A stretch of DNA of 60,417 nt from an uncultured Pirellulaceae bacterium (GCA_964620405.1 CAZUJM010000008.1:1-60417); one strand, 5' to 3'; positions 15,301 to 60,007 are shown, numbered from the stretch's first letter. Notes: generated from the letters alone by a model not told the origin. Numbers and translations: made by a program.

Positions 15301-15373
<73 letters not shown>

Positions 15374-40771: not shown

Positions 40772-40930
40772 AAACCTCGTTACTCCTCTTGAGTCCGCGC
40801 ACGGACGGACCTGTGTCAAACACCCTGGGGAACTCGCGCGAGATGACGGCAGCGCAACGCAGCCGCACCTCGATCGGCTCGGGCGAACGACGGTTTCCGG
40901 ATCGTTCAGTCAGGATCCCCGTGGGGACCT

Positions 40931-41644: not shown

Positions 41645-42931
41645 TTACGTCGCGAAGAAGATGCGGCGCGTGTTGTCACGAAGCACGGTAACGCCCAGTT
41701 CCACGGCCCGCTCCTCACTCCAGCCGCGATCCACGACGAATCGCTCGGCCAGCACCTTGGCGAGGATGCGCTTGTACATGTTGAACTTCGGCAGGGCGAA
41801 CTCCAGCTTGTACATGTCGCTGTAGTATCCGATCTGCTTGGTCATCGGCACGGCTTCCAGTCGCGCCGCGGCGTCGTGCTCGATGAAGGTCGGCGTGTTG
41901 GAGTACCACCAGTGTCCGTTCGTGACGACGTTGGGGAAGATCCACGCGTAGCTGGTGAGTTCCTGGTTGGTGACGCTGGCCAGCACGGAGATGGGAAACG
42001 TCACCTGCGGGAAGGCGTTGAAGAGGTGGCGGTACTGGATGAGTGACACACGGCTGTCATAGAGGTCCTGCCCCTGGTACACACCGGACTGGTAGACCGC
42101 TCGGTTGACCCCGATCATCAGGTCGAAGGGCAGGCGGTATTCGACGCAGTACTCGGCCAGCATCCAGAAGACGAAACGAGCCACCGTCGCGCGGGCTTCG
42201 GGCGTCACCGACGTTCCGTCCCGCAGCCACTCCTGCAGCGCCCGATCGGCCTCCACGTCGCTCACCGGTTCGGGCGCGAAGTCGGGCGGCAACGAGATGG
42301 CGCACGCGCGGGCTCCCTGCGCCGTGAAGTGCTGGAACCGCTGCCCCACGGCCTGGCGGAGCCGCGCGGCGTTCGTCGCGGGAATGCCCGAGCAGGCGGC
42401 CAGTCGTTCCTGCACGCGCGGAGTTCCCAGGTGGAAGACCAGGTCGTCCGTCCGCAGGCAGGGGATGTAGACCCGCGTGTCGAAACCCTCCAGCGGATCG
42501 TCGAAATCGTTGGTCAGGAACACCGCTTCCAATCTGCTCTTCCGCAACACGTCCGCCGCCCACCCCGGCGACTGCATTTTGCGCAGCGACTGGTCGTAGA
42601 GCGACTCCCAGTTGGCCGGCGTCACCTCATCGCCCGCGAAGTCGAACAGCTCGCGGCACATCTCGACAAGCCAACTGGCCTGGATGGTGTTCCGCAGCGG
42701 CCCCATGTTCTCGACCAGTCGCCCAACCTTCTCCTTGGGATCCAGCCCGGGTTCTTCGATCCGCGTGCGCGGCATGCCGGCGGAATGGGCCAGTTCGGTG
42801 TAGTAGTGGTATCCGAGAATGTCCGCCAGCGTGGACGAAGCCGGCTGCAGCGCTTGGATATGGGTGTGGGGATCGACATAGTCCACGGCCGCGATCTGGT
42901 CATGGATCCGCTGGCGAAGCAACTCCGACAT
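41645..42931 (-). CDS. uronate (glucuronate) isomerase-like amidohydrolase-fold protein
   Basis: ATG 42931 follows an AAGGAA site. The N-terminal metal-binding-type motif DYVDPHTHI and then LGYHYYTELAHS match my recollection of planctomycetal proteins annotated as glucuronate isomerase. Confidence 0.5.
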   Translation of the reverse strand: MSELLRQRIHDQIAAVDYVDPHTHIQALQPASSTLADILGYHYYTELAHSAGMPRTRIEEPGLDPKEKVGRLVENMGPLRNTIQASWLVEMCRELFDFAGDEVTPANWESLYDQSLRKMQSPGWAADVLRKSRLEAVFLTNDFDDPLEGFDTRVYIPCLRTDDLVFHLGTPRVQERLAACSGIPATNAARLRQAVGQRFQHFTAQGARACAISLPPDFAPEPVSDVEADRALQEWLRDGTSVTPEARATVARFVFWMLAEYCVEYRLPFDLMIGVNRAVYQSGVYQGQDLYDSRVSLIQYRHLFNAFPQVTFPISVLASVTNQELTSYAWIFPNVVTNGHWWYSNTPTFIEHDAAARLEAVPMTKQIGYYSDMYKLEFALPKFNMYKRILAKVLAERFVVDRGWSEERAVELGVTVLRDNTRRIFFAT

Positions 42932-43042
42932 GCTGTTCCTTTCGTATTCCCGATGAACGAACGCGACGCGCTGAGTTCCTGCGAGGGGGAGGCGATGTCG
43001 CACCTCGACCTCTCGTCCTCACCGACTACAAGCGGGGAGACC

Positions 43043-43843
43043 TCACGTCGTCAGCGGCGGCGGAGCGTCCAAGAAGCTGCGGTAGAGTTCCAACGCGTGC
43101 TGAGCATCTCCGTCACGCGGCACCCACCAGACGATGGCCTGGGCGCGGCGAATGACGCCCTTCTCCAGATGCTCGTCCAGCAGCTCATACTCCACGGCTC
43201 GCGGCGTGGCCTCGGCGGACGACACGGACCAGTGGACCACGTCGGTCGGATAGACCATCAGCACGAGGCTCGCAGCCTTCGCATCGGCCACCGACCGCTG
43301 CAGCAGCAGGCAGGGCGCTGGCCGTCCAGCCGCCTCGCCCGTCCGCTTCATGACCGTCTCCTTGAGCAGTTCGCGGAACCCCGGCATTTCGCCTGCTCCC
43401 GCAGCATCCGGTGCTGCGTCCTCCGACGCGGCGACCGCCAGTCGGGGAGCCGTATTGCGCCAGAGGTGGCTTAGTTGTATCGCGGGCCGCGCATCGAGGC
43501 GCGGAGTCCACACGGAGAAGACCCAATGCAGGCCCACGGCGGAGGATTCGGACAGACGCCGCCAGTAGACCTGCGTATGCAGTTGCGAACCGGGCGTGGG
43601 ACCGTAGGTGACCACGAGGTCGTCTTCCCGCACATAGACATCCGCTACCATCGACGACGGCAGCGGATCCGGCAGCCCCGGCACCTGTGTCCGCAGCAGC
43701 GAACAGGAGCCGTCGGCGGACCGCAGCCCCTCGCGCGGATGCTCCAGATCCAACCGCCAACCTCCCGGCACGGCCTCGAATTCGGCCGCATGGCCGGCGA
43801 CCTTCCAGCAACCTCCCGACATGTGCCCGCTCCCTCCCGTCAC
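43043..43843 (-). CDS. hypothetical protein
   Basis: The ORF has protein-like composition and lies immediately upstream of, and co-oriented with, the isomerase-like gene. I recognise no motif. An alternative start is at 43822. Confidence 0.5.
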   Translation of the reverse strand: MTGGSGHMSGGCWKVAGHAAEFEAVPGGWRLDLEHPREGLRSADGSCSLLRTQVPGLPDPLPSSMVADVYVREDDLVVTYGPTPGSQLHTQVYWRRLSESSAVGLHWVFSVWTPRLDARPAIQLSHLWRNTAPRLAVAASEDAAPDAAGAGEMPGFRELLKETVMKRTGEAAGRPAPCLLLQRSVADAKAASLVLMVYPTDVVHWSVSSAEATPRAVEYELLDEHLEKGVIRRAQAIVWWVPRDGDAQHALELYRSFLDAPPPLTT

Positions 43844-44277
43844 GAACTCTTCGCTTCCCCCATCCGAACGCTACGAAACGGGGTCCGCATTCTACCATTT
43901 CCGTTCGCCGCCCCGGGACGGCGAACCCGCAGCCACCGGGGGATTTTGCGGGGCCGGATGTTTCCTGCCCCGGATTCCTGAGAAACAACGCGTTCCCCGC
44001 GCGGCCTCCGCCGCCCGTTGCCTCTCGCTCGTCTTCCCACGCGGTTGCCGCGGCGTACCCGGGGGTGACGGCAAGGGTATCGCAGCCAGCACCGTGCGCG
44101 GTTCCGCGCACCGGCCCCTCCTAGCAACCGCGTAGATGCCCCAGCAACCTCATGGACGATCAAACGCCAATCTGTGGAGTCGGTTGTTGAATCGCGTTCC
44201 TCGCGCGGCTACAGTGCCCGCTCGGAACAGGCAATGGCAAGTGTTTGCATCCATCGTTTTTTTTCCAGGAGCATGCC

Positions 44278-46047
44278 ATGACCAGCCCGTGTTTTCGACG
44301 AACTCTCTTCCGCCGATCCTTGTTTGCATCCCTCTTCAGCTCTGCCGTGATCTTCTCCACCCACCGCGCGGATGCGCAGTTGATCTATCGGGAGAACTTC
44401 GAAGGCGATGGCTCGGGATACACGATCGACACGCCCGAGTATGTGGAGCAGACGCCGGAGAATGGCTGGAGCCCAGGAATCTGGGGCCTCAATACGCAGG
44501 GCAGCCAGATCGGCCTGGCGGCCAACGCGCCGGCTAAGCGAGCGGCGATCCTCTGGAACCACGAAAGCAGCATCACCGGGGACACCTTCACCAGCGAATC
44601 GCTCGACGTTTGGCTGTCCCTGACCGACTGGTCACTCGGCATCACCAACCCCGCCGATCGCGCGTCGAAGCGGATCGCGATCGTGCCGAGCTACGCGACA
44701 GAAGCGGTCGCAGCCGTGCAGCAACGACTTGTCCAGGGCGGATACTCCGCGTCGAAAATCACGGAGCAGGCGGACTACCTGTCGATCTCGCCGAGCAACA
44801 CCGACCTGGCAATCTTCTCCAGTGAAACCAGCGTCACCCTGCCCGGCCTCGCGGTGCCCATCATCTCGTTCCGCTCCGAGACGCATGACGACAACGCCAT
44901 CGCGGGCATCGGCGCGGCGCTCGACTTCCCGGATGCAGTCGACCTGGCCGTGCCGGTAGCGCAGCGCAACCATCCGGCCCTGGGCACCAGCGGCGCCGAC
45001 GGAGTAATCCGCTGGACCACGGGCCCGGCGCGTCTGGAAGGCATCGGCATCACGCACAATGGCGGCAAGACGCTGGCCGAGGTCGAGAATCCGGTCACCG
45101 GCGATCGTTCGCCCGCCCTTTTCGTGATCGAGAAAGGCTCGCCGCTTCTCGGAGCGTTCAACCCGACCCCCGAGGGTCGCCAGTACATCGTAGGCTCCGC
45201 CCTCAACAAATTCGGCAGCATGGGCGAGCGTGTGTTGGAACTGAAGCCGGTCAACGTTGCGGGAAAGTCCGACGTGAAGGTCACCGTCGCGCTCGCGAGC
45301 GTCACCAGCGATTTCGAAACCGGTGACTACATGATCCTGGAAGTCGACCCCGATGGAAGCGGCCCCGCCGGCGTGACGTCGCTAGTCGAGTTCTATGGAG
45401 TGGACAATCCGGCCAGCGCGTGCCACAAGGGCCTGAGCAACGACAACGGCATGCCGGGCAGCATCTGCCTGAAGCCCGAGTTCACGGACCATACCTTCAA
45501 CGTTCCGGCCGGTGCCACCAACCTGGTGTTCCGCATGCGGGGCTTGAGTACTTGGGGCAACGAGATCTTCGCCATCGACAACATCCGGATCCACTCCGGA
45601 AAACTCGTGTCGGGCGATTTCAACTCCAACGGCAACCTCGATGTCGGTGACCTCGATCTGCTCGCCGACGCGCAGATCACCAACAACAAGGCTTACGACC
45701 TGACCGGCGACGGCCAGACCAATTTCGACGACCGCCTGTCCTGGGTCCGCGACCTGAAGAAAACCTGGGTGGGCGATTCCGACCTGAACGGCGTCTTCAA
45801 CACGGCCGACTTCATCACCGTCTTCCAGGAAGGCAAGTTCGAGACGGGGCAGTCGGCCGGTTGGGGCGCAGGCGACTGGAACGGCGACAAACTCTTCAAC
45901 ACGTCCGACTTCATCGTCGCGTTCCAAGACGGAGGCTTTGAGCAAGGCCCGCGTGCTGCTGTCGCCGCCGTGCCCGAACCGACCTCCGCGCTGCTGGCCA
46001 CCACCGCCAGCCTGCTGCTGGCCCTGGTACGCCGACGCAGGACGTAA
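44278..46047 (+). CDS. secreted protein with a dockerin/EF-hand-like module and a PEP-CTERM sorting signal
   Basis: An AGGAG site lies 7 nt before ATG 44278. The signal peptide is ..SAVIFSTHRADAQ. The C-terminal roughly 150 aa are paralogous to the C-terminus of 22702..24750 and end in VPEPTSALLATTASLLLALVRRRRT. Confidence 0.8.
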   Translation: MTSPCFRRTLFRRSLFASLFSSAVIFSTHRADAQLIYRENFEGDGSGYTIDTPEYVEQTPENGWSPGIWGLNTQGSQIGLAANAPAKRAAILWNHESSITGDTFTSESLDVWLSLTDWSLGITNPADRASKRIAIVPSYATEAVAAVQQRLVQGGYSASKITEQADYLSISPSNTDLAIFSSETSVTLPGLAVPIISFRSETHDDNAIAGIGAALDFPDAVDLAVPVAQRNHPALGTSGADGVIRWTTGPARLEGIGITHNGGKTLAEVENPVTGDRSPALFVIEKGSPLLGAFNPTPEGRQYIVGSALNKFGSMGERVLELKPVNVAGKSDVKVTVALASVTSDFETGDYMILEVDPDGSGPAGVTSLVEFYGVDNPASACHKGLSNDNGMPGSICLKPEFTDHTFNVPAGATNLVFRMRGLSTWGNEIFAIDNIRIHSGKLVSGDFNSNGNLDVGDLDLLADAQITNNKAYDLTGDGQTNFDDRLSWVRDLKKTWVGDSDLNGVFNTADFITVFQEGKFETGQSAGWGAGDWNGDKLFNTSDFIVAFQDGGFEQGPRAAVAAVPEPTSALLATTASLLLALVRRRRT

Positions 46048-46680: not shown

Positions 46681-47200
46681 TCGGTGATCATAGCAACTTG
46701 ACATGTCATGTCCATAGTTTTGTCAAAAAATGATGAGAATCCTGCGGCTCCTGATGAAGAGGCCGCGAATGTGGCGTTCGAGGCCTGAGGATCTCGTCTT
46801 CAACCGTGTCTCAGCGGTACTCCTTTAGTCTCAACGACCACCTCAATCGTTACCTGCTTTGCCGGACCGTCAGCGTTTGACGCGCGGCGACACGGTGAAG
46901 GTCCGTTGGGTAGCGGCAGCCATCGCGAAGACGGGTCTCCGGACCAGCGACTCAAGTCTTCCGTCCAGGGACCGGGGACCTGGGCGTGGTCGAGCCCCTG
47001 CGGCATGACGAGGCAAACCCAAGGGATCCCGGAAAGGGAGTTTCACGGGCCCGCATGCTTGAACTACAGTGGGTCTTGGGCCAGACGCAACGCATGGTGC
47101 GCGTCCCGAGGTCCACGCGGCGAGGGAAAACTCCCTCGCCGTTCACCACAATCGCCGTCCGAACGGCGACAACGACCGGCGAAAGATAGAGGCCGTCCGG

Positions 47201-48019
47201 ATGAGCCAGGAAAGTCTAGCTGCGGGTGATCTTTTACAGGCACGCGACTCCGCCGAACGCGCGGCTCGGGAAGCCGGCCAGATCCTGCGCCGCATGCAGG
47301 CCGGTATCTCCGCACGCGAAAAAGGCCCGGCCGATCTCGTGACCGAAGCTGATCTGGCCGCCCAGGCCGCCATTGAACAGCTTCTCACCACCGAATATCC
47401 GCAGTTCGGGTTTCTGGGCGAGGAAAGCCCCCCACCCGATGCCCAATCCGCCGGACACCCGGAAGCTCCCTTGTGGATTGTGGATCCGCTCGACGGGACC
47501 ACCAACTATGTGCATGGCCTGGACAACTACTGCGTTTCGATCGCTTTGCGCGACCGTGGCGAACTGGTGCTGGGCCTGATCTTCGATCCGGTCCGCGACC
47601 AGGTGTTCTCGGCGATACGCGGCGGCGGTGCCTTCCGCGACGGCAAGCCCCTGCGGACCAGTGGCACGCGCGACCTGACCCAGGCGCTCGTCGCGGCCAG
47701 CTTCGCCGCCAAAGTGCCGCCGCATTCGCCGGAAGTTGCCCGCTTCGTGCAGGTCCTGCATCGCGCGCGGGCCGTTCGACGCCTGGGCTCCGCCGCGCTC
47801 AACCTGGCGTACGTCGCCGCCGGAAACCTCGACGGCTACTGGGCCACCTCGGTCAAGATCTGGGATATCGCCGCCGGCTGGGTGCTGGTTCGCGAAGCGG
47901 GCGGAGTGCTTAGCGGCCTGGACGGGATGGCTCCCGATCCGGCTCGCCCCCAGTTCGCCGCCGCCGCCACGCCGGAACTGCAGGCCGATCTGCTGCGCAC
48001 CCTCGCGACGACTTCCTGA
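47201..48019 (+). CDS. suhB: inositol monophosphatase family protein
   Basis: Family motifs are present: FLGEE, WIVDPLDGTTNYVHG, and ..WDIAAG.VLVREAGG. ATG 47201 was chosen; the upstream part of the ORF is not protein-like. Confidence 0.9.
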   Translation: MSQESLAAGDLLQARDSAERAAREAGQILRRMQAGISAREKGPADLVTEADLAAQAAIEQLLTTEYPQFGFLGEESPPPDAQSAGHPEAPLWIVDPLDGTTNYVHGLDNYCVSIALRDRGELVLGLIFDPVRDQVFSAIRGGGAFRDGKPLRTSGTRDLTQALVAASFAAKVPPHSPEVARFVQVLHRARAVRRLGSAALNLAYVAAGNLDGYWATSVKIWDIAAGWVLVREAGGVLSGLDGMAPDPARPQFAAAATPELQADLLRTLATTS

Positions 48020-48358: not shown

Positions 48359-51300
48359 ATGTCGCAACCGCAGTCCGTTCGCCGCCGCTTCGGTGACCAG
48401 CCACGCCGCGCGATCCTCCTGGGATGGCTGCTCGGTGTCGCATTGACTTGGACTCTCGTGACGCCCCACGCCTTCCCGATCGCCAGTGCCCAATCGGCCA
48501 GCGTTCCATCGGCCAGTGCGTCCGGGCAAGAAACCCGCGAAGCAGCCGACGACGGGGCGCAGGCTGCCGATTCCGCCCCGGACGCAGCCTCCGCGGAACC
48601 GTCGCCCGAGGTGGCCAGCGACGCGAACGCGGCGGCCCCGGAACCAGCGGAAACGCCCGACGATCCCGTCGAGGGCAACTCCGAAACACGCCCGCCGTCC
48701 CTCGGCATTCCCTGGCGTGGTGCGCCGGTGGAGGCCGGTCCGGGGGCTTTGGTGGTGGAGCAGGCGCCGCGGATTCTGTTCACGCGCGACCAGCAGGGAA
48801 GACTTCGGCCGCTGGTGAACATTCCCTGGGAGCGGATCCAGGCGTTGCTGGATGCCGAGGACACCGGCGACGTGCAACCGCTCGCGCCGCGTTTCCAGAT
48901 CACGAACCTGACGGCGCAGGGACAGGTGGCTGGCGACACGGTCGAGATGTCGCTGGAACTGCGGATCTCGCTGCCCGCGCCAGCGGCCGGCGACGGGCGC
49001 GTCGCCAGCTGGACTCTCCTGCCGCTGCGTCTCCCCGATGCCTCGCTCATCGCGCAACCGGAGCATGAGGGGCCGGGCAAGTTGTTCGTCGTCTACCGGG
49101 AGATGGAAGGCTACCAGGCGTGGATCCATCACGAACGGGCGGGCGAGCATCTCATCCGGCTGCGTGTCGCCATGCCACTGGACGAGGCGTTGGGCGCAAC
49201 GCGGCTGCAGTTGCTGGTACCCGCCGCGACGCAATCGCGTCTCGAACTCGACGTGCCCGGTGAACAGTTGGCGGTGGAGGCCGATGGGGGGCGTCGCGCG
49301 ACGGTGTCCGCCGCGCCCGACGGACGCTCGCGCATCGCCGTCTCCGACCTCCGCAACCAACTGACGCTGGCCTGGACCAAGGGCGGCGATGTCGTCGCGC
49401 AGCAGCCCGCCAACTTCGATGTGCTCGGCGACATCCGCGTGAGTGTCGATGGGCCGGGCGCGATTCGCAGCCAGGTCTCGTTGGAGTTGCAGAGTTACGG
49501 TCGTCCGATCGAACGCTTCCTGCTGCGTCTTCCGCCCCACACTTCCATCGTATCGGGCAACCAACCCGGCTACGAGCTGCGCGAGCGGACGGTGGCCGCC
49601 GGCGCACAGGAAGCGTCGTCCGCCGGGGAGCCGCGCGAAGTCGAGATCACGTTGCTGAAACCCGCGGCCCAGGCGCGACTGCAGCTGACGACGCAGACCA
49701 GCCATCCGGAGGGAAGCGAGGCGCGGACGTCCGTGGGCGTCTTCGAAGTGCCGGGCGCGATCCGCCAGTCGGGACAGATCACGCTCCTGGCCAGCGAAGA
49801 CTGGCGCGTCGACTGGACGCTGGGGCCTTCCGTGCGACGCATCGCGACGCCGGACACGCTGGAGACGACCGGCGACCGGCGTCCGCTGGCGACGTTCCAG
49901 TATTTCCGCCAACCATGCCGCTTGGAGGTCGAAGCGCGTCCGCAGGAGACGCGTACCACCGTGCGGCCGCGTTATCGAATGCATGTCGAGGAAGATCGCG
50001 TCTCGCTCGAAGCCCAGTTCGACTACCGTCTGCGCGGCGCACGCATCGGTGCGCTGGGCTGCTCGCTGAACGGCTGGATCCTCGACGACATCGGCCCCAG
50101 CGGATCGGTCGAGGACGCGCCGGTGGAGGACGCGCCGCCCGAGCGTGGCACGCCGGATTCAGGCGAGCCCGGATCGGACACCGCCGCGAACGAGGCTTCT
50201 CGGCAGGTCCGGCTGCGGCTCACGCGGCCCACCACGGGTGACATGACGTTGACACTGCGGCTCCACCGGCCCGTGACGGAGCGCAGCGGCACCTTGCGAC
50301 TGGCCCTGCCCTCGCCGATGGCGGACGGAGTGATCCCCGGCACGCTCCTTGTCTCCGCCGGCGACGCGGTTGTCCTCGACTTCCGCTCCGCCGAAATGTC
50401 CGGCCTGGTCCCGGACGCCCGCACGATCAACGACCCCGCCGACGGGCCCACGTTGGCTCCGCCCTCCGCCACGCCAGGCGAACGCAGCTCGGCCGCGTTC
50501 CCGCCGACGACTCCCGGCAGCCCGCTCGGCTCCGCGCCGCTCGAGCCGGCCTCGTCCGCGTCCGCCTTTCCCGCCGAAGCGTCCGCCACGGGCACCGCCT
50601 TTCGCTTCCTGGGCGATCGCGCGGCAGGCGAACTCGTCATGGACTACGAGGTCCGCGAACAGGAGATCCGAGTGCGCATGGACAGCGAACTGGAAGCGAC
50701 CGGCGATGTGCTGCAGGTCACCCAGCGCATCGGCTATCGCGTCCTGTACCGTCCGACGTCGCAGTTGAAACTCGACGTCCCCCGGCCGCTTTTTGAACTG
50801 CTGGCGAATCCTCGTTACCGTCCGCAGGTCGAACTGCGACTCGACGGCCAGACGCTGGGGCGTGAATCGTTCGAGGATGTCGCCGATTCGGTCGACGCCC
50901 TGCGCAACATCGTGCCGGTGAACCTGCCGCTCCCCCGCCCTCGACTGGGTAACCTGGAACTGCTGCTGCGTTTCCCCTGGCCGCTGCGTCCCACCACCTC
51001 TGCCAACTCCCTGTCCGTACCGCTGGCCACTCCGCGCGAAGGACGGCTGCTTTCGAACCTCGCCACGCTCCGCGACTCCAGCCCATTCCGACTCGAACCC
51101 ACCCGCGACGTCGGCTGGGTGCGTGAGGCGTCCCTGGGCGGCAGCGAGCCGAAGTCGGGACTGCAGCTCTCCTCCGCCCAGCGCACCAGTTCCCTGCAAC
51201 TCCAAGTCATCGCCTCCCAGCAGCCGACCGAGACCACTCCGGCCGCGGCCAGTTCGACCACCATCCAGCGCGCCTGGATGCAGACGTGGCTGACACGTGA

Positions 51301-52423
51301 GCGTCAGCATGAGCGGGTCGTGCTGCGGATCACGACGGCCGCGAGCCGGATCCGCGTGCGCACCGCGGTGAACGTCCGAACGCTGAACGCGCTGGTCGAT
51401 GGACAGGCGGCGGAAGCGACGCGCGACGAACGATCTTCCCAGGAGTGGACAATTCCTCTCTCCAGTCCGCAGGCGGGCGAACATACCCTGGAACTGTTCT
51501 TGGAGTACACCTCGCGGCAGCCTTCGGGGAACATGCGATTCCAGTGGCCCGAATTGGCCGATGCCTCCGCGCCCCGACGCTGGTTCTGGCAGCTGGTCGT
51601 GCCGCAGGATGAACATCTCTGGTCGAGCGATTCGCTGCTCAGTTCCGCCAATCGCTGGCAGCGCGAGGGAATCGTCTGGCGTCGCGAGGCGGTGCAGTCG
51701 CAGGCCAGCCTCGAGGAGTGGACGGAAGCGACCTCGCAACCGCCGATCCCCCCAGGCGTGCACTGCTATCTGTTCAGCTCCTTCGATCCTGCGGGCACGT
51801 TCGCGGTCCGCACCTGCAACCGCCGCACACTCGTCTACGGATTCTCCTTCCTCGCGCTCGCCGTCGCCTGCGCATGGACCTACCTGTCCATCCTCCGCCA
51901 TCCGCTCGCCACCATGGCTTGCAGTGCGTTGCTGGCCGCCACGGCCTGGCGTTACTCCGAACAAGCGGCTCTCGTGGCCCAGGCCAGCGTCCTTGGACTC
52001 GCACTGGCCGCCGTCCCCGCGTTCGTGCGCCGCTGGGGAGGCACGGCAGAGCCCACAGGACGTCGCTCCTGGACAGGACGCGGCACCGACGGACGCCTGG
52101 TCGACTCGCGACCACCAGAACTTCGCAGCACCGATGTGCACAGGCCCGACTCGCAACGCATCGACACGCGTCGCGCCGATTCCCACCGCGGTGACGCGCT
52201 GCCGTCCGACCCCGTCAGCAACGGCTCGCACCGGCACCTCGCGCAGGAACTGGAACGAGCGGCCCAGGAAGGATCGGCGCCGCCCACGACCATCCGAGTT
52301 CCCGGCCAACGCGACTCGCATGCGCCGATGCATGCCGCGGATGGCCCCGCTACCGATCATCCCGCGCCGGATACCCCTCCGCACGACACCTCCGTGTCCG
52401 GCGTGCCGGAGTCCCGACCATGA
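48359..52423 (+). CDS. giant membrane-anchored hypothetical protein (module 1 of a paralogous series)
   Basis: An N-terminal signal or anchor is present (RRAILLGWLLGVALTWTLVTPHAFPIASAQS). About 1,150 aa of balanced, beta-rich sequence follows, then a C-terminal cluster of hydrophobic helices (LVYGFSFLALAVACAWTYL.., MACSALLAATAW, ASVLGLALAAVPAFV) and a charged tail. The antisense ORFs are Arg/Gly/Pro-rich and not protein-like. Confidence 0.8.
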   Translation: MSQPQSVRRRFGDQPRRAILLGWLLGVALTWTLVTPHAFPIASAQSASVPSASASGQETREAADDGAQAADSAPDAASAEPSPEVASDANAAAPEPAETPDDPVEGNSETRPPSLGIPWRGAPVEAGPGALVVEQAPRILFTRDQQGRLRPLVNIPWERIQALLDAEDTGDVQPLAPRFQITNLTAQGQVAGDTVEMSLELRISLPAPAAGDGRVASWTLLPLRLPDASLIAQPEHEGPGKLFVVYREMEGYQAWIHHERAGEHLIRLRVAMPLDEALGATRLQLLVPAATQSRLELDVPGEQLAVEADGGRRATVSAAPDGRSRIAVSDLRNQLTLAWTKGGDVVAQQPANFDVLGDIRVSVDGPGAIRSQVSLELQSYGRPIERFLLRLPPHTSIVSGNQPGYELRERTVAAGAQEASSAGEPREVEITLLKPAAQARLQLTTQTSHPEGSEARTSVGVFEVPGAIRQSGQITLLASEDWRVDWTLGPSVRRIATPDTLETTGDRRPLATFQYFRQPCRLEVEARPQETRTTVRPRYRMHVEEDRVSLEAQFDYRLRGARIGALGCSLNGWILDDIGPSGSVEDAPVEDAPPERGTPDSGEPGSDTAANEASRQVRLRLTRPTTGDMTLTLRLHRPVTERSGTLRLALPSPMADGVIPGTLLVSAGDAVVLDFRSAEMSGLVPDARTINDPADGPTLAPPSATPGERSSAAFPPTTPGSPLGSAPLEPASSASAFPAEASATGTAFRFLGDRAAGELVMDYEVREQEIRVRMDSELEATGDVLQVTQRIGYRVLYRPTSQLKLDVPRPLFELLANPRYRPQVELRLDGQTLGRESFEDVADSVDALRNIVPVNLPLPRPRLGNLELLLRFPWPLRPTTSANSLSVPLATPREGRLLSNLATLRDSSPFRLEPTRDVGWVREASLGGSEPKSGLQLSSAQRTSSLQLQVIASQQPTETTPAAASSTTIQRAWMQTWLTRERQHERVVLRITTAASRIRVRTAVNVRTLNALVDGQAAEATRDERSSQEWTIPLSSPQAGEHTLELFLEYTSRQPSGNMRFQWPELADASAPRRWFWQLVVPQDEHLWSSDSLLSSANRWQREGIVWRREAVQSQASLEEWTEATSQPPIPPGVHCYLFSSFDPAGTFAVRTCNRRTLVYGFSFLALAVACAWTYLSILRHPLATMACSALLAATAWRYSEQAALVAQASVLGLALAAVPAFVRRWGGTAEPTGRRSWTGRGTDGRLVDSRPPELRSTDVHRPDSQRIDTRRADSHRGDALPSDPVSNGSHRHLAQELERAAQEGSAPPTTIRVPGQRDSHAPMHAADGPATDHPAPDTPPHDTSVSGVPESRP

Positions 52424-53976
52424 GCGGCGCGGCCACAGCAGCGCGCCCCATCCCGCGTTCGCGCAGCGACGGCGATGGCAGCCGCGTCTGGCGCAGATCG
52501 AGCAAGTGCGTGAGTCGAAGCCAGGCCGGGAACTTTCTTCTCCTGCTTCTCGCCCTGCTGGCCTTGGCAGGCATCGCGGAGCGTTGCGCCGCCCAGTCCG
52601 TGCTGGCGTCCGACTCCGCTGCGCCCCTTGGAGTGGACGACGAACGAGCCTCCGCGCGTCCACGCGGTGCGTCCGATGGCATGGCTGGCAAGGTCCGCGA
52701 TTCCGGCAATCGCACGCCGCTCGATCAGCCGGCCGTTCCGACGCTGGCCGTGCCGATTCCCTATCGCATGATCGCGGCGCCGCTGGAGCAGATTGAGCGG
52801 ATGGCGCGGGGCGAGTATCGCACGGTGCCGCAGTTGGAATTCCAGCAGCAGATCGCGAGCCAGTCGAGTCTGCTGCCAGCGCCGTTGCGGCGAGGAGCGA
52901 TGCTCGCCGAGGCGACCTATGCGGCGCGGCTCGAGTCAAATCGCCTGCTCGCGGGTACCGCCAACTGGCAGATTGTCGCCACCAGCGACGCGCCCTCCTG
53001 GCTCGATTTGGGAAGGCCGTCGCTGGCGCTGGCGGAGCCACGCTGGACGGATGCGACCGAGGGAGCGGCGGCCGCCGACCTTGGTTGCACGCCGGACGGC
53101 AACTGGCTGCTGCGTGTTCCCGGATCGGGAACGATCCAGTCGCGGTGGAGCCAAGCGGCGATGGAGCGGGAGGCCGCGCGAGAAGAGGAGCAAACGGAGG
53201 AGGAGCTGGAGTTTGTGCTGCGGCTGCCGCACTGCCCGCGCAGTCGCCTGGAACTGCAGGTGCCAGCGGAGTACGCGTTGCAGGTGCAGCCGGGCATCGC
53301 GCGACGCATCGTGCTGCCGCAGGATCCGGCGGCAGCAGCCAGCGGCTCCCAGCTCGCGCCCAACGTCGAACTCTGGCAGGTTGACCTGGGCGGACGCCAT
53401 GCGTGCCGCGTGACCCTCCGTCGCCGCGAAGCGATCGTACCCCAGCCCGGCCTGCGGCAGTCGACGAACTACCAGGTCTCCGAAGCCGGACTGGAGGTTT
53501 CGACCGAAGTGACGCTCGATTGTCACGATGCCCCCACATCCCGCGCCAGCCTGCGTCTCGATCCACCCTTGCGCATCGTCCGCGCCACGCTCAACGGACA
53601 GCCGCTGGAATGGACCTCGCGAGGCAACCAGAACACCCGTGGGGAAGGCATTGCGGACACCGGCGTCGAGCGAGACGCGGGAGAGCGATTCACGCTGCGT
53701 TTCCCCTTCGAGCTGACGGGGCGGCAGCATACCCTGCGCATTCTGGCGTTGGCACCGCCGCGCAGCGAACCGCGGTGGGTACTTCCGCGCGTGCATCTGG
53801 AGGATGTCCAGTGGCAGCAGGAGACGGCCGAGCTGACACTGGCACCGCCCTGGGTGCTGGAGGAACTGGACCTGCAGCGCGCCCTCCGCCAACGATCCGG
53901 ACTCGGCGGCCACTCGACGACGCATCCGCTACCTCGCGCCCACCGCGCGGGTGGCGATCCAGATGACCACGCCTGA
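52420..53976 (+). CDS. membrane-anchored hypothetical protein; it looks like the N-terminal part of module 2, possibly separated from the next ORF by a frameshift
   Basis: An ATGA overlap links it to the upstream gene. The signal anchor is NFLLLLLALLALAGIAERCAAQS. It shares motifs with module 1 (for example SRLELQVP versus SRLELDVP). Confidence 0.7.
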   Translation: MSGAATAARPIPRSRSDGDGSRVWRRSSKCVSRSQAGNFLLLLLALLALAGIAERCAAQSVLASDSAAPLGVDDERASARPRGASDGMAGKVRDSGNRTPLDQPAVPTLAVPIPYRMIAAPLEQIERMARGEYRTVPQLEFQQQIASQSSLLPAPLRRGAMLAEATYAARLESNRLLAGTANWQIVATSDAPSWLDLGRPSLALAEPRWTDATEGAAAADLGCTPDGNWLLRVPGSGTIQSRWSQAAMEREAAREEEQTEEELEFVLRLPHCPRSRLELQVPAEYALQVQPGIARRIVLPQDPAAAASGSQLAPNVELWQVDLGGRHACRVTLRRREAIVPQPGLRQSTNYQVSEAGLEVSTEVTLDCHDAPTSRASLRLDPPLRIVRATLNGQPLEWTSRGNQNTRGEGIADTGVERDAGERFTLRFPFELTGRQHTLRILALAPPRSEPRWVLPRVHLEDVQWQQETAELTLAPPWVLEELDLQRALRQRSGLGGHSTTHPLPRAHRAGGDPDDHA

Positions 53977-56900
53977 ACGGCGCCTGGAAGCGGTGTCGGC
54001 CACCGAAGTGCAGGTCGACCGCGGTGAACTGCGGGCTCGCATGGTGGTCGAACTGCGACGTGGCGGCTCGGAGCACTTCGACCTCGCGGCCAACTTGGGC
54101 GCACGCTGGTCGATCGAATCGCTGGAAGCGGACGATCCTTCGTCGATCAGCCACTGGCAAGTGGTCGACGGCGCGTCAACGCGCCAGCTTCAAGTGCGAC
54201 TCCGCGACCCGATACCGCGCGACCAATGGCTGCGGCTCACAGTCATCGCCCGCGGCAGCCATCAACTAGATGACCAGCCGATTCCCCTCCGCGAACTCAC
54301 TCCGTTGGAATGGCCCGTGCCTTGGGACGAATCCAGGCAGTTTCTGCTCCTGCGCCCCTCGCCCAGCGTCGGCGTCGACTATCCGCAGGACGCCGCCATG
54401 AACTGGCTCGGCCTGGACGACCTCGACGCCCGCGAAGCGCGTCTCGCATCTCCGCGCGACGGCGAGCGAGTCATCCTGCTGGACGGCGGCGCCCGCCGCC
54501 AGGCCGTTCGCTTCTTCGAGCGTTCGGAGGAAGTCCGGCTCGCCTCCACGCGTAACCACGTCACGGCGAGGTTTTCCGGCCGGACGCTGGCGGAACAGTG
54601 GCGAATCGAGATCGACCGCGCGCTGCAGCACCCGCGTCAACTCCACGTCCAGTTGTCGCAGCGCCGCGCGGGGCCAATCCGCTGGTATCTGGAGGGGGCT
54701 TCGTCGCGGGACCTCGTCGCGCGACGGATGGCGACCAGCGGCGAAGATGCCTCCGAGACGTGGGAGATCGACTGGCCGGACACCTCGGGACAATCGATCG
54801 TGCTGGTAGGACAGCGCACGTCGGAGTCGCCCGGCCTGGTCAGCATGGCCCTGGCGCGTGTGCAGGAAGCCGATGCGCAGGATGGTTCGCTGGTACTGGA
54901 AGCCAGTAACGACCTCCATCTGGATGTCGACCACTCGCCGCTCATCACCGCGTTGCCGGTCGGCCAACCCAGTCCGCGCGAGACAGGCCCCCGACGCTAC
55001 TCATTCCGCTACTCGCCGCTTGCTGAAATCTTCACGCCCCAGAACGCCGTGCGCGTCCGCAGCACTCCGCGCGAAGCGACCGCGATCGTCTGGAGCCTGC
55101 TGGTGGAGACGTTCGTCGACACGGGCGAAGTGATGCCCGGACAGGTCACGGCATGGCTGGAGAACCTGGGAGCCGCGTCGTTTCGGATCCGGCTGGCGGA
55201 CGGTTGTCGGCTGCGCGAAGTACTGCTGAACAACCGCCCGGCGTCTTATGGTACCGACGAACAGGGGTATCTGATCGTGGGACTGCCTGCGGACGCGCGC
55301 TTTCCGCAGGTGCGTCTTCGTTACGACCAACCCGCCCACACGGGCACTCCACCGTTTCCGTCCCTGGCGACGCAAGTGCAGGTCCTCTGGCCGGAGGTTC
55401 CGTCGGCGGTCCTGCGTCGTCGGTGGCAGGTCTGGAACGCTCCCGATCTGCTCGTCCCGCTCGACAGGTCGACGATCCATTCGGCGGGCGACGATGTGTC
55501 TCGCCTGCTGGTCTCGCAGGACGCGACTCCCTTCGCGCGACTGCTCGGCCCCCTCTACCAGCCGCGTCTGCTGCAAGCCCTCCTGCCGCGCGACGGGCGT
55601 TCGGCGAACGCCATGACGAACGGGAAAACGCCGCCTGGCGCGACGGGCGCGAACCCGGACGAGCCCGTCGCTGCCCCGCAACCAACTGCCAACGAGCGGC
55701 CTGCGGTCTTCGAAGATGCTGACGCGTTGTTGGCAGCGACCGCGCAGTCGGCGGCGCGATACTGGCTGGAACGAATCGGGGACGAACGGGTGCAGACGTG
55801 GAAGGACCTGCAGGAACTGCCACGGCGTGCGAACGCGTCCTCGGCTGCTGAACGCACGGCCGCTTCACGCCTTCTGCCCGCTCCCCTGTGGCTCGACTTC
55901 ACCCACTTGGAGGCTCGGGGCATCGCCTTGCGATCGCCCTTGCCGACGGTTTCGGCCGACTCCGCGACGCGCCGTGGACTCGAACGTCTTCGCCAATTGC
56001 AACTGGTGCTGCTGGTCACCCGCGCCGGCCCCATCGTGACCACCCCAGCCGCCCTGGCGGCGTTGCCCTCCGCGCCGGACGCTGCTGGCCGGGGACCGCT
56101 GGTGCCATGGCCCGACGCGGTGCTGGAAGTCCGCGGCGACGAAGCGTCGTTGGCGTCGGCGCCTTGGCTGCCGCTGGTGCCCCTGGAATCCTGGTCGCGG
56201 GTGGCTCCGACATGGACCACCTTTCGCGACGATTTGATGCCGTACGAAGCAACGGGATGGGAGTGGACGGAGCAGCCGATGGGGCGAGGGCAGGTCTGGG
56301 TCTGGAGTCGCTCGGGATTGCGGACGCTGACACTGGCGGCCTGGCTCGGCGGCCTGGGCCTTCTTCGCCAGTTGGCTCGACGGCGCCGCGGCAGCCTGTG
56401 GGCGGCCGTCATGCTGTTCACGGCGGGCCTGCTCGCTCTCTTCCTTCCCGCACCGTTCCACGGACTCGCGCAAGGCGTGCTGCTCGGTGGCTGGCTGGGG
56501 GTGGCCTGGGAGGCGTGGCGCGGCTTGCGCCTCGACCGCGGTGACCAAGGTTGGTCAGCCGCGACCCGCGAGTCCCAGGCGCACGCGTCGAGCCCCCATG
56601 CGTCGACGGTCGGCGTCACGACCGCCCTGGTGCTGGCCTGCTTGGCCGGCGCGCTCACCAGCGTCCAGAGCTTGCACGCCCAGTCGCCGCCCGCGACCGA
56701 TGCGTCGCGCGCGGAAGATGCCGTTCAACCGCTTGTTCCGAACACGCGTGCTGCGATCGACGCTGCAAGCGGCGGTACGAGCGGCGGTTCCGCCCGCGGC
56801 CCGCTCAAGCCCTGGGATGTGTTCGTGCCGGTCGACGAGCAGGGGAACGCGGCGGGAGACTACCTGCTGGTCCCCGCCGAATTGCAGAAGCAGTTGCGGC

Positions 56901-59900
56901 GCATGAACTCCGCCGGCCAGGGATCGCCGGCCTGGCTGCTCGCCTCCGCCCGTTACTCGGGTGCCCTCCAGCAGCGGGACGCGTCGAGTCCGTTGGAACT
57001 GGACCGTCTGACGGCGCGTTTCGAATTGGAAGTGTTCCACGGCAACCAGCCGTTGCGGTTTCCGATCGCCGAGGCGGCGGCGAATGTGCTGGAGCGGCAG
57101 GCGCGCCTCGATGGACGCGTGGTGGAGCTGAACTGGAACGCCCAGGACGCGAGCGTCACGTTGCCGCGCCTGGCGGCCGGCCGACATGACCTGGAGATGA
57201 CCTTCCGTTGTCAGTCGGAGCGTGAGGGCGGGCGCGCCGCGGTGCGGCTGCCGATCCCCCGAGCTCCCCAGGCTACGCTGTCGCTGGATTCGCCGATCGA
57301 ACTGCAGGAGCTCACGGTGCCCTCGGCGCGGGGAACGCTCACGCGCCGTGAGACGACCGGGCAACTGCAGGCGGAATTGGGATCGAGCGACCTGCTGTGG
57401 ATCGAATGGCTGCTGCCGCGCGAGGCGACTGCCACCCCTTCGCTGGAACTGCTCCAGTGGCTTCGGCTCGCGCCCGAGAGCGTGGAGATCGACGCGATCT
57501 GCGTGGTAGACGTGGCTCAGTACGCCGAGTCCACGCTCCTGCTGGAGGTGGACGAGCGACTGCAGTTGGACTTGGAACGAAGCGCCGCACCGCTGTCGAC
57601 AGCCCCGGGAGCGGAGGAAGGCCTGCGGCGAATGGAGTTTGCCGTGCCGGTCGATTCCGCCCGTCTGCCGGCGGGCCGCGCGCGGATTCCGCTGCGATTC
57701 ACCTGGCCCGGGTATGCGGGGATCGGCCGCGTCCCAGCGCCCACACTGCGGCTGGTCGCGCCGCAAGCCCTGCACTGGCTGGGCGTTTCGGCCGATGATC
57801 GCCTCACGGTGCGCATCGAACCGGGCAATGGACTGCCGCTGCCCGCAGCCGATTTCCGCCAGGCATGGGGAGCCGGTCCCCTGCCCGACTACGCGTACCA
57901 GTTCGCCACCGCGCCGCGCGCCTGGGTCAGCCAGGGACAACCCAGTGTCACTCCGCCCGCCCTGGAATTGCAGACGGCCTTTGTGGTCGGCGCCACGACC
58001 ACGCGCACGCTGGTGGCGGCCACGCTGCGTCCGCCCTCGACCGGCACGTTCCAGCAACGCGTGCAGGTCCCGGAAGACATGGAGGTGCTGTCGGTGCAGA
58101 AGGTCGCGGGGCCCGCCACGACCAGCGTCCGCTGGACCCGGCCCGCGCCCAACCTGCTCACGATCTTCTTCGAGCCAGTTGTGACAGGAACTTGTCAATT
58201 CGGCATCGTCGCGCAGCAGGCCGGCCAGTCGCTGGGCAACCGCCCGCTTCCCGAACTGCGCTGGCTCGACGCCACCCTGGCCAGCGACCGCCAGGCGATC
58301 TACCGTCACGACGAAGTGCTGCTGCCGACCAGTCCGGAACGCCCAATCGAAACCGACCAGCCCGTGGCCTCCGAACTCGGCCCATTCCTTCGCAACCAAC
58401 TGGGCCTCGCCCGCCCCTGGAATCGCTGGCAGTCGGCCGAAACCGGGCTGCGCGAAGTCGAAGTGCAGGCGAACACGCGATCACTCAAGGCCGACCTGCT
58501 GAACATCGTGTCACGTCGGCAGGGCGCGTGGCACCTGCAGCTGGAACTGAGGCTGCAACTGGAGGCCGGCGTGCTCGACGACCTCACCCTGGAAATTCCC
58601 GAGGCCTGGACGTTCGCGCTGCAGCAGAACGCCGACGCCCGCGTCCTGCTCTCGCCCTCACCGCGACCGGGCATGGCGCGCGTAACCATCTGGCCCCAGG
58701 CAGGCCCCGTCGACACCCGCGTTCCCTTCGTGCTCGGCGGTCCGATTCCGCTGCGTCCCGGGGAACCGATGCGCGTGCCCCACGTACGACTGCTGGAAGA
58801 CGCGGAGATCACCGAACGCCTCTACCTGCCCGCGGAGACCGACGGGCGGCCCGTGCTCTGGAGCCTCTCCGGCCTGGAACCGCTCGAGGAACCGGTGCCA
58901 GCCGCCGTGGATGCCGACCGCTCCAGCGTCTACCGCGGCTTCCGCTCCGCGTCTCGCGACTTCCAAGCCGTGCGTCTGCCAGCGCCCGGCGCACAGGGAA
59001 AACCCCACGTGCGCCTCAGCGACCTCCAGGTGGCCTGCCTGTCCGTGGAGAAGAAGTCGGGGGGTTCCCCGCCAACCAAGGTCCCCTACGAGGTCAGCGG
59101 ACTGCTCGACCTGCAACCCGAAGGACTGGATACCGTCTGGCTGGAACTACCGGAAGGCGTCGAATTGCTGCTGGCAACCATGGACGATCAGTCGCTGAGC
59201 ATCCCGCGACTCAAGAAGATCCAACAGGCAGGCGTGCAGCAGTGGCAACTTCCTGTCACCGGCGCATTGCTGCCAGTCCAGCTGCGCGTCGTCTATCGCG
59301 GCGCCACGCCCTGGACGGCGCCAGGTCGCGAAACGGCGTTCGCCATGCCGCGGCTCCGCATCTCGCCCGCCACTTCCTCCGATATCCCTGTCGCGCGGAC
59401 TCTCTGGACCCTGCACGACCTTGCCGGCCAGGATCCCAACGGTCGACGCGGGCACTGGTCCGGCGCGGCCTCGCTCACCACCAGCGAACTCCAGCACCGC
59501 CAATGGCGCTTGGCCGACTTGGCGGACGCGTTTCGACAGGCCACGCAGCAGACCACCGAGTTCTCGCCGGTCGACCTCTCCCGCTGGTATTCCACGTGGG
59601 GCGCACGGTTCCTGGCCCAGGTCGCGATCGCACGAGCTGCCGCAAGCGCCGCTTCGGCGAACACCGCAACCGCGCAGGACGACACGCGCGCCGCGACGGA
59701 ACTCGCCGAACAGGTGGCCGAACACATCGAACGCGTCGCGCAACTGAAGGTCGAAGCCGACTTCCGGCGCCTGGAATCGGAAGGCAACCTGGCCAGCACC
59801 GATCGCATTTGGAACGACGGCCTGCCGCGCCAACCCGCCAGCTGGCGAGGCGCCTCCACCGACTCGCTCCCGGAACTGCGACTCACCTGGACTCCCGACA

Positions 59901-60007
59901 CGACCGATTCCGGCCCCCTCTTCACCGCCCTGCTGCTGCTTGTCGGCTCTTCCCTGTGGGTTTCGTGGCGCTGGCCGCGACGCGCGGGATTGGAACGGCC
60001 TCGCTAG
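53951..60007 (+). CDS. giant membrane-associated hypothetical protein (rest of module 2 fused to module 3)
   Basis: The 2018-codon ORF starts at GTG 53951 (or ATG 53963) and overlaps the upstream ORF. An internal helix cluster and an internal signal-peptide-like segment lie around codons 790-910. The C-terminal anchor is PLFTALLLLVGSSLWVSWRW. Confidence 0.8.
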   Translation: MAIQMTTPERRLEAVSATEVQVDRGELRARMVVELRRGGSEHFDLAANLGARWSIESLEADDPSSISHWQVVDGASTRQLQVRLRDPIPRDQWLRLTVIARGSHQLDDQPIPLRELTPLEWPVPWDESRQFLLLRPSPSVGVDYPQDAAMNWLGLDDLDAREARLASPRDGERVILLDGGARRQAVRFFERSEEVRLASTRNHVTARFSGRTLAEQWRIEIDRALQHPRQLHVQLSQRRAGPIRWYLEGASSRDLVARRMATSGEDASETWEIDWPDTSGQSIVLVGQRTSESPGLVSMALARVQEADAQDGSLVLEASNDLHLDVDHSPLITALPVGQPSPRETGPRRYSFRYSPLAEIFTPQNAVRVRSTPREATAIVWSLLVETFVDTGEVMPGQVTAWLENLGAASFRIRLADGCRLREVLLNNRPASYGTDEQGYLIVGLPADARFPQVRLRYDQPAHTGTPPFPSLATQVQVLWPEVPSAVLRRRWQVWNAPDLLVPLDRSTIHSAGDDVSRLLVSQDATPFARLLGPLYQPRLLQALLPRDGRSANAMTNGKTPPGATGANPDEPVAAPQPTANERPAVFEDADALLAATAQSAARYWLERIGDERVQTWKDLQELPRRANASSAAERTAASRLLPAPLWLDFTHLEARGIALRSPLPTVSADSATRRGLERLRQLQLVLLVTRAGPIVTTPAALAALPSAPDAAGRGPLVPWPDAVLEVRGDEASLASAPWLPLVPLESWSRVAPTWTTFRDDLMPYEATGWEWTEQPMGRGQVWVWSRSGLRTLTLAAWLGGLGLLRQLARRRRGSLWAAVMLFTAGLLALFLPAPFHGLAQGVLLGGWLGVAWEAWRGLRLDRGDQGWSAATRESQAHASSPHASTVGVTTALVLACLAGALTSVQSLHAQSPPATDASRAEDAVQPLVPNTRAAIDAASGGTSGGSARGPLKPWDVFVPVDEQGNAAGDYLLVPAELQKQLRRMNSAGQGSPAWLLASARYSGALQQRDASSPLELDRLTARFELEVFHGNQPLRFPIAEAAANVLERQARLDGRVVELNWNAQDASVTLPRLAAGRHDLEMTFRCQSEREGGRAAVRLPIPRAPQATLSLDSPIELQELTVPSARGTLTRRETTGQLQAELGSSDLLWIEWLLPREATATPSLELLQWLRLAPESVEIDAICVVDVAQYAESTLLLEVDERLQLDLERSAAPLSTAPGAEEGLRRMEFAVPVDSARLPAGRARIPLRFTWPGYAGIGRVPAPTLRLVAPQALHWLGVSADDRLTVRIEPGNGLPLPAADFRQAWGAGPLPDYAYQFATAPRAWVSQGQPSVTPPALELQTAFVVGATTTRTLVAATLRPPSTGTFQQRVQVPEDMEVLSVQKVAGPATTSVRWTRPAPNLLTIFFEPVVTGTCQFGIVAQQAGQSLGNRPLPELRWLDATLASDRQAIYRHDEVLLPTSPERPIETDQPVASELGPFLRNQLGLARPWNRWQSAETGLREVEVQANTRSLKADLLNIVSRRQGAWHLQLELRLQLEAGVLDDLTLEIPEAWTFALQQNADARVLLSPSPRPGMARVTIWPQAGPVDTRVPFVLGGPIPLRPGEPMRVPHVRLLEDAEITERLYLPAETDGRPVLWSLSGLEPLEEPVPAAVDADRSSVYRGFRSASRDFQAVRLPAPGAQGKPHVRLSDLQVACLSVEKKSGGSPPTKVPYEVSGLLDLQPEGLDTVWLELPEGVELLLATMDDQSLSIPRLKKIQQAGVQQWQLPVTGALLPVQLRVVYRGATPWTAPGRETAFAMPRLRISPATSSDIPVARTLWTLHDLAGQDPNGRRGHWSGAASLTTSELQHRQWRLADLADAFRQATQQTTEFSPVDLSRWYSTWGARFLAQVAIARAAASAASANTATAQDDTRAATELAEQVAEHIERVAQLKVEADFRRLESEGNLASTDRIWNDGLPRQPASWRGASTDSLPELRLTWTPDTTDSGPLFTALLLLVGSSLWVSWRWPRRAGLERPR

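Follow-up and report, generated by a model that had tools for sequence, protein, structure and literature searches.

The described proteins that come closest to the system presented here are ribophorin I/Ost1 (PF04597), a non-catalytic subunit of the eukaryotic oligosaccharyltransferase, and PIG-T of GPI transamidase, in which non-cytoplasmic tandem saddle-like beta-sandwiches lead directly into a membrane helix and which have a scaffold-type role without catalytic residues. The legs of integrin alpha chains (thigh, calf-1 and calf-2) form a linear beta-sandwich stalk ending in a membrane helix, and the bacterial alpha-2-macroglobulins (A2M; YfhM/ECAM, Salmonella A2M) are very large periplasmic proteins of many beta-sandwich (MG-like) domains, held at the inner membrane by a lipoprotein anchor. 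BatD, encoded in an envelope operon for aerotolerance of Bacteroides, combines a signal peptide with a beta-sandwich ectodomain and a membrane helix. Here we analyze a pair of giant genes, A and B, at one end of a stretch of 60,417 nucleotides (the window) from an uncultured Pirellulaceae bacterium (GCA_964620405.1 CAZUJM010000008.1:1-60417). Gene A comprises module 1, and gene B, which is interrupted by a frameshift in this sequence, comprises modules 2 and 3. We consider it somewhat probable that the two encode a three-module heteromeric scaffold that lies in the periplasm and has its anchor in the cytoplasmic membrane.

Paralogy of the modules and the reading frame of gene B

Three open reading frames (ORFs) on the forward strand of region 48359-60007 were confirmed by ORF calling and translation, with the same coordinates as in an earlier note on this DNA, and the two overlaps that it had reported, an ATGA at 52420-52423 and 26 nt at 53951-53976, are located exactly there. 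The DNA has a G+C content of 65-70%, at which long spurious ORFs turn up frequently on either strand; on the grounds of homology and structure prediction ORF1, ORF2 and ORF3 are nevertheless genuine coding sequence.

The earlier note had also proposed, from motifs compared by eye, that one architecture occurs in the region as three paralogous modules. When the ORFs were compared pairwise by BLASTP, nothing significant was obtained (best E 0.56 in a three-protein database). Family alignments were compared by hhalign, with one partner reversed or column-shuffled as a control. The gene A family was aligned with the N-terminal half of gene B with a probability of 99.3% (E 6e-21) over 951 collinear columns (A 138-1224 against B 116-1367) and with its C-terminal half with a probability of 98.1% (E 8e-14, 913 columns), while the two halves of gene B matched each other with 99.6% (E 2e-24, 824 columns). 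The scores were 129-227 for the real alignments and 14-28 for the controls; the shared motifs are not compositional noise. In addition, a HMMER profile of 144 A-type proteins matches B-type proteins at 1e-38 to 1e-50. By these comparisons modules 1, 2 and 3 are ancient paralogues, a clean case of triplication detectable by profile methods only. Weaker off-diagonal matches within the modules point to sandwich units repeated inside each of them. A residue map agrees with the motif shared near the N-terminus and reproduces both the correspondence SRLELDVP / SRLELQVP / ATLSLDSP and the series at the ends of the modules (RRWFWQL.., RRRWQVW.., ARTLWTL..); in the 'RLEVEARP' series the third copy had been placed by that note about 150 aa out of register, as estimated from the same map, while the remaining matches made by eye hold.

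The count of three genes has to be revised. In related contigs the orthologue of ORF1 is followed by one ORF of approximately 2,200-2,400 aa. Gene B is unbroken in about 30 complete related loci (proteins of 2,000-2,700 aa) and, in about 10 further loci, up to the end of the contig. The 2385-aa protein of locus L001, for example, first matches residues 112-490 of ORF2 and further on residues 1-2008 of ORF3, and the proteins of the window match the profiles of A and of the N- and C-terminal halves of B (B_N and B_C) in that order. When the three-frame translation is compared with homologues, homology can be traced in the ORF2 frame as far as ..LDLQRALRQ, with 27 codons left to the stop of ORF2; from DPDSAATRRRIRYLAP.. 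onward it is in the frame of ORF3, whose GTG comes 19 codons later. Dropping base 53893 gives one continuous reading of 2528 aa, and 14 of 14 database homologues of this fused product are 2101-2495 aa long. The site corresponds to residue 495 of ORF1, where the module 1 model and the residue map place a beta-sandwich loop adjoining a strand. Since relatives have a single gene in place of ORF2 and ORF3, we read the 26-nt overlap as a by-product of a 1-nt frameshift and not as a coupling junction. ORF2 and ORF3 are, judged by this homology, a single gene B split by a frameshift that arose through an error in sequencing or assembly or through a recent mutation. A programmed frameshift was considered and rejected because direct reading of the site reveals no slippery, stop-codon or prfB-like motif and the frame of the relatives is continuous.

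A genuine split in this organism, with three polypeptides produced separately and true coupling at the 26-nt overlap, appears unlikely. The in-frame GTG and the shortness of the overlap are in accordance with it, and no close relative covering the site was found that could exclude it: the closest one, the Pirellulaceae metagenome-assembled genome (MAG) from Lake Mendota with locus L005 (90% DNA identity), stops within gene A, and a metagenome scan with a peptide spanning the frameshift found no relative. Against it stand the homology that begins ahead of the GTG in one frame and ends ahead of the stop in the other, the position of the break within a predicted beta-sandwich, and the intact ORF of the complete related loci. 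Fragmented relatives are only L006 (9935-20518) and L034 (9857-19620), MAG contigs with both genes in 6-10 pieces in differing frames, plus a short piece in L002. So many breaks in both genes are the signature of error-prone assemblies, and they indicate that frameshift errors in the A/B pair do occur in public assemblies. For annotation this means that the apparent three genes are two and that a frameshift flag belongs on the split between ORF2 and ORF3.

The earlier proposal of a translationally coupled operon stands for the junction of genes A and B. Of 48 related loci, 40 have ATGA here and four more have GTGA (44 of 48 together), and the overlap is kept although the A and B proteins of related loci are only 22-27% identical, so that translational coupling of the two genes is supported by its conservation. 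The second overlap, as explained above, falls away.

Distribution, conservation and searches against known families

An exhaustive HMMER search of 1.84 billion representative sequences with the gene A profile found matches in at least 2,808 clusters (50% identity) at E <=1e-3, and in 1,291 at E <=1e-30. The source names of 20 clusters were checked; they read 'hypothetical protein' or were left blank, with no cultured organism among the sources, and the clusters that can be identified are all from uncultured planctomycetes. When GTDB species were scanned with one genome each, 59 loci were obtained, all in MAGs of Planctomycetota, labelled as Pirellulales, Pirellulaceae, Planctomycetales, Planctomycetaceae, Planctomycetia or plain Planctomycetota. 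A few MAGs with a Pirellulales-type locus carry the label 'Candidatus Kuenenia' (L027, L030, L044, L045, L046, L052, L059 and L012), which looks like a taxonomic mislabel.

Orthologues of gene A are 1113-1345 aa long and 24-90% identical to it. The order A and then B was found in every locus of sufficient length, including distant clades in which the neighboring genes differ; two distant A-B pairs (1109 + 2350 aa and 1254 + 2683 aa) have different neighbors and keep the overlap. A lack of such conservation would, according to the earlier note, have refuted its proposal. Furthermore, natural single-chain fusions in the order A, B_N, B_C are present in three separate clusters from several sources (P0055, P0121 and P0129; 3,007-3,410 aa). 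The constant order, the ATGA/GTGA junction and the three fusions suggest an obligate partnership of A and B.

The most conserved stretches of gene A are residues 451-570 (GAxRQxG ... QPxxL ... PRxTR), 961-990 and 1051-1200, the last of which holds the motifs RRxYWQLxLPxxEHL and NxYLFS, a loop with RHP and membrane helices one and two. Juxtamembrane and transmembrane parts are among the most conserved in the profile, which is what contact between the modules there would predict. Among the near-invariant residues W, P, G, L and R predominate, and an invariant Asp/His/Cys/Ser constellation is lacking.

In accordance with the earlier statement that no named domain can be recognized, neither the whole of Pfam-A (hmmscan, E up to 1) nor NCBIfam gave a meaningful match to ORF1-3, and Pfam-A at E up to 0.01 gave none to 59 diverse relatives (38 + 21). 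There was no match in PADLOC-DB at E up to 0.01, hence no known anti-phage defence model, and a profile search of PDB sequences returned chance-level matches only. The profile searches thus placed the proteins in no characterized family, BatD-like or adhesin families included. A motif search by regular expressions of gene A and fused gene B found no CxEQ thioester, metalloprotease motif or genuine sorting signal; the single 'LPVTG' lies in a beta-rich part about 250 residues from the C-terminus and no hydrophobic tail follows it. Signals of the PEP-CTERM, type IX secretion system (T9SS), autotransporter or beta-barrel kinds were not detected in ORF1-3 by Pfam or NCBIfam. For the AsmA/TamB/DUF490 type there was no Pfam or NCBIfam match either, and no TamB/AsmA-like structure was among the best 50 Foldseek matches listed. 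The literature on giant genes, ribophorin, the crateriform proteome and Planctopirus essential genes yielded no description of the A/B family.

Foldseek comparison with the PDB gave the same spectrum of matches for the module 1 and module 3 models: ribophorin I/Ost1, integrin alpha legs, PIG-T (module 1), A2M-type proteins and mu-homology domains and, for both modules, the N-terminal beta domain of M1 aminopeptidases or a related zinc peptidase. These matches look like generic tandem beta-sandwich stalks, and none amounts to family membership. A/B are an undescribed family in every library searched, new as a protein family and built from common folds.

Predicted architecture and genomic neighborhood

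The earlier note had described each module as a helix serving as signal or anchor, an extended ectodomain rich in beta structure and a hydrophobic helix or helix cluster, and on this AlphaFold2 and hydropathy agree. The model of gene A residues 125-1260 (67-sequence alignment; m530399faf7e6) has a mean predicted local distance difference test (pLDDT) of 83.6 and a predicted template modelling score (pTM) of 0.51. It consists of a beta-hairpin and a helix, about 1,000 nearly all-beta residues with several strands of 23-25 residues, and three membrane helices; one insert, at about residues 690-745, is disordered. The part of the C-terminal tail included in the model (to residue 1260) has pLDDT <50, the tail is conserved at about 0.2-0.4 bits, and relatives are shorter there. 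The module 3 model (mdd0a216a06bb) has a mean pLDDT of 75.0 and a pTM of 0.38. In both modelled modules the ectodomain is predicted as some 850-1,000 residues of stacked beta-sandwich.

Hydropathy finds the signal-like helix at the N-terminus of both A and B, two helices of the module 1 cluster and one of the module 2 cluster (fused residues 1326-1355), the flanking ones of module 2 (about 1300-1320 and 1350-1368) being recognized by direct reading of the sequence. As the hhalign alignment of modules 1 and 2 reaches fused residue 1367, module 2 was assigned the same plan with three helices on the basis of collinear alignment and hydropathy. Module 3 ends in a helical region of approximately 100 residues and one transmembrane (TM) helix, unlike the three-helix cluster of modules 1 and 2; this helix lies below the hydropathy threshold used and is seen in the AlphaFold2 secondary structure.

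The three signal-like helices all have AxA-Q-like endings (ASA-Q, CAA-Q and LHA-Q). In the family consensus of A-type proteins 'AQ' follows the N-terminal hydrophobic stretch, and we infer cleavage by signal peptidase after the module 1 helix. An AxA-Q-like ending also follows the equivalent internal helix in most B-type homologues (P0009-P0184), and its retention suggests that the gene B product may be a polyprotein: the internal helix may be a signal-peptidase site at which the chain is cut in the membrane. Three helices, an odd number, before this internal helix would bring the chain back into the cytoplasm, which is consistent with a re-export of module 3.

Directly upstream of gene A and on the same strand, an inositol-monophosphatase-family (IMPase) gene is present in 46 of 47 close-clade loci with enough upstream DNA, and no terminator-like site was seen between the two. 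The first 26 codons of its GTG-started ORF match L005 in another frame than the rest of the protein does, so its true start is probably later. A functional coupling of A/B with this gene was downgraded because the IMPase gene, so constant in the close clade, is not upstream in two more distant A-B pairs. In 42 related loci a homologue (about 250 aa) of the 266-aa gene of the window is found upstream of the IMPase gene in divergent orientation; W, R, D, Y, E, G and an LEKGV-like motif are among the invariant residues. By this synteny the 266-aa gene is the fourth member of the neighborhood conserved in the close clade. L005 also has the 600-aa ORF between the 266-aa and IMPase genes (84% identity), which L001, L002 and L062 lack. 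The UxaC-like, extracytoplasmic function (ECF) sigma factor and alpha/beta hydrolase genes are syntenic in L001, L002, L005 and L006 and not in distant loci, and genes downstream of A/B vary between loci. The coordinates of all these features are collected in Table 1.

Table 1. Features of the A/B locus and of its surroundings, in positions of the window; residues marked as fused are those of the continuous gene B reading.
Feature	Position	Strand	Description and basis
ORF1	48359-52423	+	1354 aa
ORF2	52420-53976	+	518 aa
ORF3	53951-60007	+	2018 aa; in-frame GTG start at 53951
Gene A (module 1)	48359-52423	+	complete, 1354 aa; orthologues and profile matches
Gene B (modules 2 and 3)	52420-60007	+	one 2528-aa protein if a single base near 53893 is skipped
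Stop/start overlap, gene A to gene B	52420-52423	+	ATGA; sequence
Frameshift site	53887-53896	+	CGCCAA-C-GATCC; homology moves from frame 0 to frame +1
Module 1 signal/anchor helix	48410-48490	+	residues 18-36, then AxA-Q-like site (..PIASAQS); hydropathy
Module 1 ectodomain	48731-51820	+	residues 125-1154; beta-hairpin and helix, then stacked beta-sandwiches; AlphaFold2
Module 1 TM cluster	51821-52048	+	three helices, about 1155-1175, 1182-1209 and 1211-1230; AlphaFold2, hydropathy and conservation
Module 1 C-terminal tail	52049-52420	+	low complexity, unconserved, predicted cytoplasmic
Module 2 signal/anchor helix	52534-52596	+	fused residues 39-57, ..AERCAAQS; hydropathy
Module 2 beta-rich ectodomain	52729-55459	+	fused residues about 104-1013; hhalign collinearity with module 1 and motif map
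Module 2 TM cluster	56318-56530	+	fused residues about 1300-1370; three hydrophobic helices
Internal signal-like helix heading module 3	56609-56680	+	fused residues 1397-1415, ..SVQSLHAQS; hydropathy
Module 3 beta-rich ectodomain	56816-59461	+	fused residues about 1466-2347; AlphaFold2, Foldseek and hhalign
Module 3 C-terminus	59486-59965	+	helical region (model residues 956-1054), short beta-hairpin, single TM helix (model residues 1097-1115)
IMPase gene	47069-48019	+	Pfam PF00459, E 1e-69; below every NCBIfam equivalog cutoff
600-aa ORF	44245-46047	+	without Pfam domain; PEP-CTERM-like C-terminus (NF038129, E 3e-5, below cutoff)
266-aa gene	43043-43843	-	divergent; no Pfam, PADLOC or PDB match
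UxaC/glucuronate-isomerase-like gene	41645-43003	-	weak match
ECF sigma factor gene	40148-40819	-	
Alpha/beta hydrolase gene	38925-39929	-	
Sucrose-(phosphate)-synthase-like glycosyltransferase gene	36506-38857	+	
tRNA gene	15301-15373	-	sole Rfam match in the whole window, unrelated to A/B

Possible role and comparison with described systems

In the reading that we favor, the ectodomains of modules 1-3 would lie in the periplasm, with their anchors in the cytoplasmic membrane; module 3 would be re-exported by way of the internal signal-like helix, possibly with a cut by signal peptidase, and the three non-identical modules would assemble 1:1:1 into one heteromeric stalk or scaffold whose role is structural or partner-organizing and non-catalytic. 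By Rosetta-stone logic the natural A-B_N-B_C fusions suggest that the three modules assemble, and coupling together with fusion would fix their ratio. A stalk or scaffold agrees with the confident all-beta models that run into helices and with the kind of proteins they match best in structure: ribophorin I/Ost1, integrin alpha legs and PIG-T. The non-enzymatic role is suggested by the kind of residues that are near-invariant, none of them forming an Asp/His/Cys/Ser constellation, and by the searches, in which no catalytic motif or family was found. Several points weigh against this reading. Assembly, location and function of A/B are all things that we infer. The topology is based on simple hydropathy and AlphaFold2 secondary structure, with basic loops and tails placed after TM segments, and at pTM values of 0.51 and 0.38 it is uncertain how the domains are arranged. 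With TM-scores of at most 0.32, the Foldseek matches reflect generic beta-sandwich arrays and carry little functional information. The conserved Arg, Gln and Glu of GAxRQxG, RRxYWQLxLPxxEHL and RHP could form an unrecognized binding or catalytic site, and the frameshift could be genuine, in which case the organism would have a broken or split gene B.

As an alternative, A/B could be accessory subunits of a membrane enzyme complex which, working like Ost1 in oligosaccharyltransferase or PIG-T in GPI transamidase, would hold a glycan, lipid-linked or polypeptide substrate beside a catalytic partner encoded elsewhere. We regard this as rather improbable. In its favor, Foldseek ranks Ost1 and PIG-T highest for module 1 and Ost1 near the top for module 3 (probability 1.00), the matches to ribophorin I/Ost1 have E 1e-7 to 2e-7 for both modules and cover the whole target over about 430 columns, both modules also match the M1-aminopeptidase N-domain fold, and the beta domains lead straight into membrane helices as they do in Ost1 and PIG-T. 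The same Ost1 matches have target TM-scores of only 0.22-0.32 and a root-mean-square deviation (rmsd) of 13-18 Å, neither PF04597 nor any other sequence match was obtained, and no STT3/AglB/PglB-type or transamidase-like gene is conserved near A/B in any locus inspected; the modules are moreover 2-3 times the size of Ost1. The giant beta-rich ectodomains with signal peptides could also belong to an adhesin or S-layer-like system of the cell surface or outer envelope, and Foldseek touches ClfA, Als3 and RspB at E ~1e-4. This is quite unlikely given that every module ends in alpha-helical TM segments, that the internal helix cluster of gene B is typical of cytoplasmic-membrane proteins, and that the only LPXTG-like motif is the internal one, with none of the PEP-CTERM, T9SS, autotransporter or beta-barrel signals. 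The earlier note had spoken of an undescribed cell-envelope or surface system, of which the envelope and its being undescribed are upheld, while a surface location is weaker than one at the cytoplasmic membrane and periplasm because of these alpha-helical ends and because no outer-membrane or surface sorting signal was found. An inner-membrane-anchored protease trap of the bacterial A2M type, finally, is highly improbable and close to refuted already. Salmonella and E. coli A2M, CD109, TEP1 and A2ML1 are among the Foldseek matches, over more than 1,000 columns, with probabilities of only 0.47-0.66 for module 1 (lower for module 3) and TM-scores of at most 0.1; there is no MG or A2M domain of Pfam and no CxEQ, no PBP1c-like partner gene lies nearby, and the three-helix anchor is unlike that of a lipoprotein.

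Planctomycetes have an enlarged, invaginated periplasm and crateriform structures and divide without FtsZ, and to our knowledge most of the proteins responsible for the features of their envelope and cell biology have not been identified. Giant uncharacterized envelope proteins are unsurprising in this group; among them the A/B pair is unusually well defined, widespread and testable. Large, strictly organized, confidently predicted in its fold and absent from Pfam, NCBIfam and the PDB, the family is a concrete candidate for a lineage-specific envelope structure. A bolder extension of the scaffold reading, to which we would give only a small chance, is that A/B are the core of an undescribed envelope machine specific to Planctomycetota: a pseudo-threefold heterotrimer of ancient paralogues on a cytoplasmic-membrane anchor, forming a stalk that would reach tens of nanometres into the enlarged periplasm, with module 3 freed by signal peptidase. 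Such a complex could contribute structurally to, for example, periplasm spacing or the crateriform pits.

Compared with the described systems, A/B resemble BatD in the plan of signal peptide, beta-sandwich ectodomain and membrane helix. BatD is several-fold smaller, no BatD-type model of Pfam or NCBIfam matched any of the 3 + 59 proteins, and neither in the window nor at six related loci does an AAA/MoxR, DUF58 or vWA (BatA/BatB) gene adjoin A/B. With the bacterial A2M they would share very large size, periplasmic location, anchoring in the inner membrane and many beta-sandwich domains, and they differ in anchor type and in lacking the CxEQ thioester and the MG, A2M and thiol-ester domains of Pfam. 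Integrin alpha legs are the top Foldseek matches for module 3 and rank high for module 1, with rmsd of 20-30 Å, and the linear stalk ending in a membrane helix is common to both; A/B have no FG-GAP beta-propeller head, integrin Pfam domain or beta-subunit analogue, and their models show sandwiches only. To Ost1 and PIG-T there is no sequence relationship (Pfam PF04597; a profile search of the PDB without an oligosaccharyltransferase chain), and A/B differ from them in modules of about 1,100 aa as against about 430-560 aa, in three-helix anchors, and in the three paralogous modules encoded by two coupled genes. What A/B appear to have in common with Ost1 and PIG-T is the arrangement of tandem saddle-like sandwiches outside the cytoplasm running directly into the membrane and, in the scaffold reading, a role without catalytic residues.

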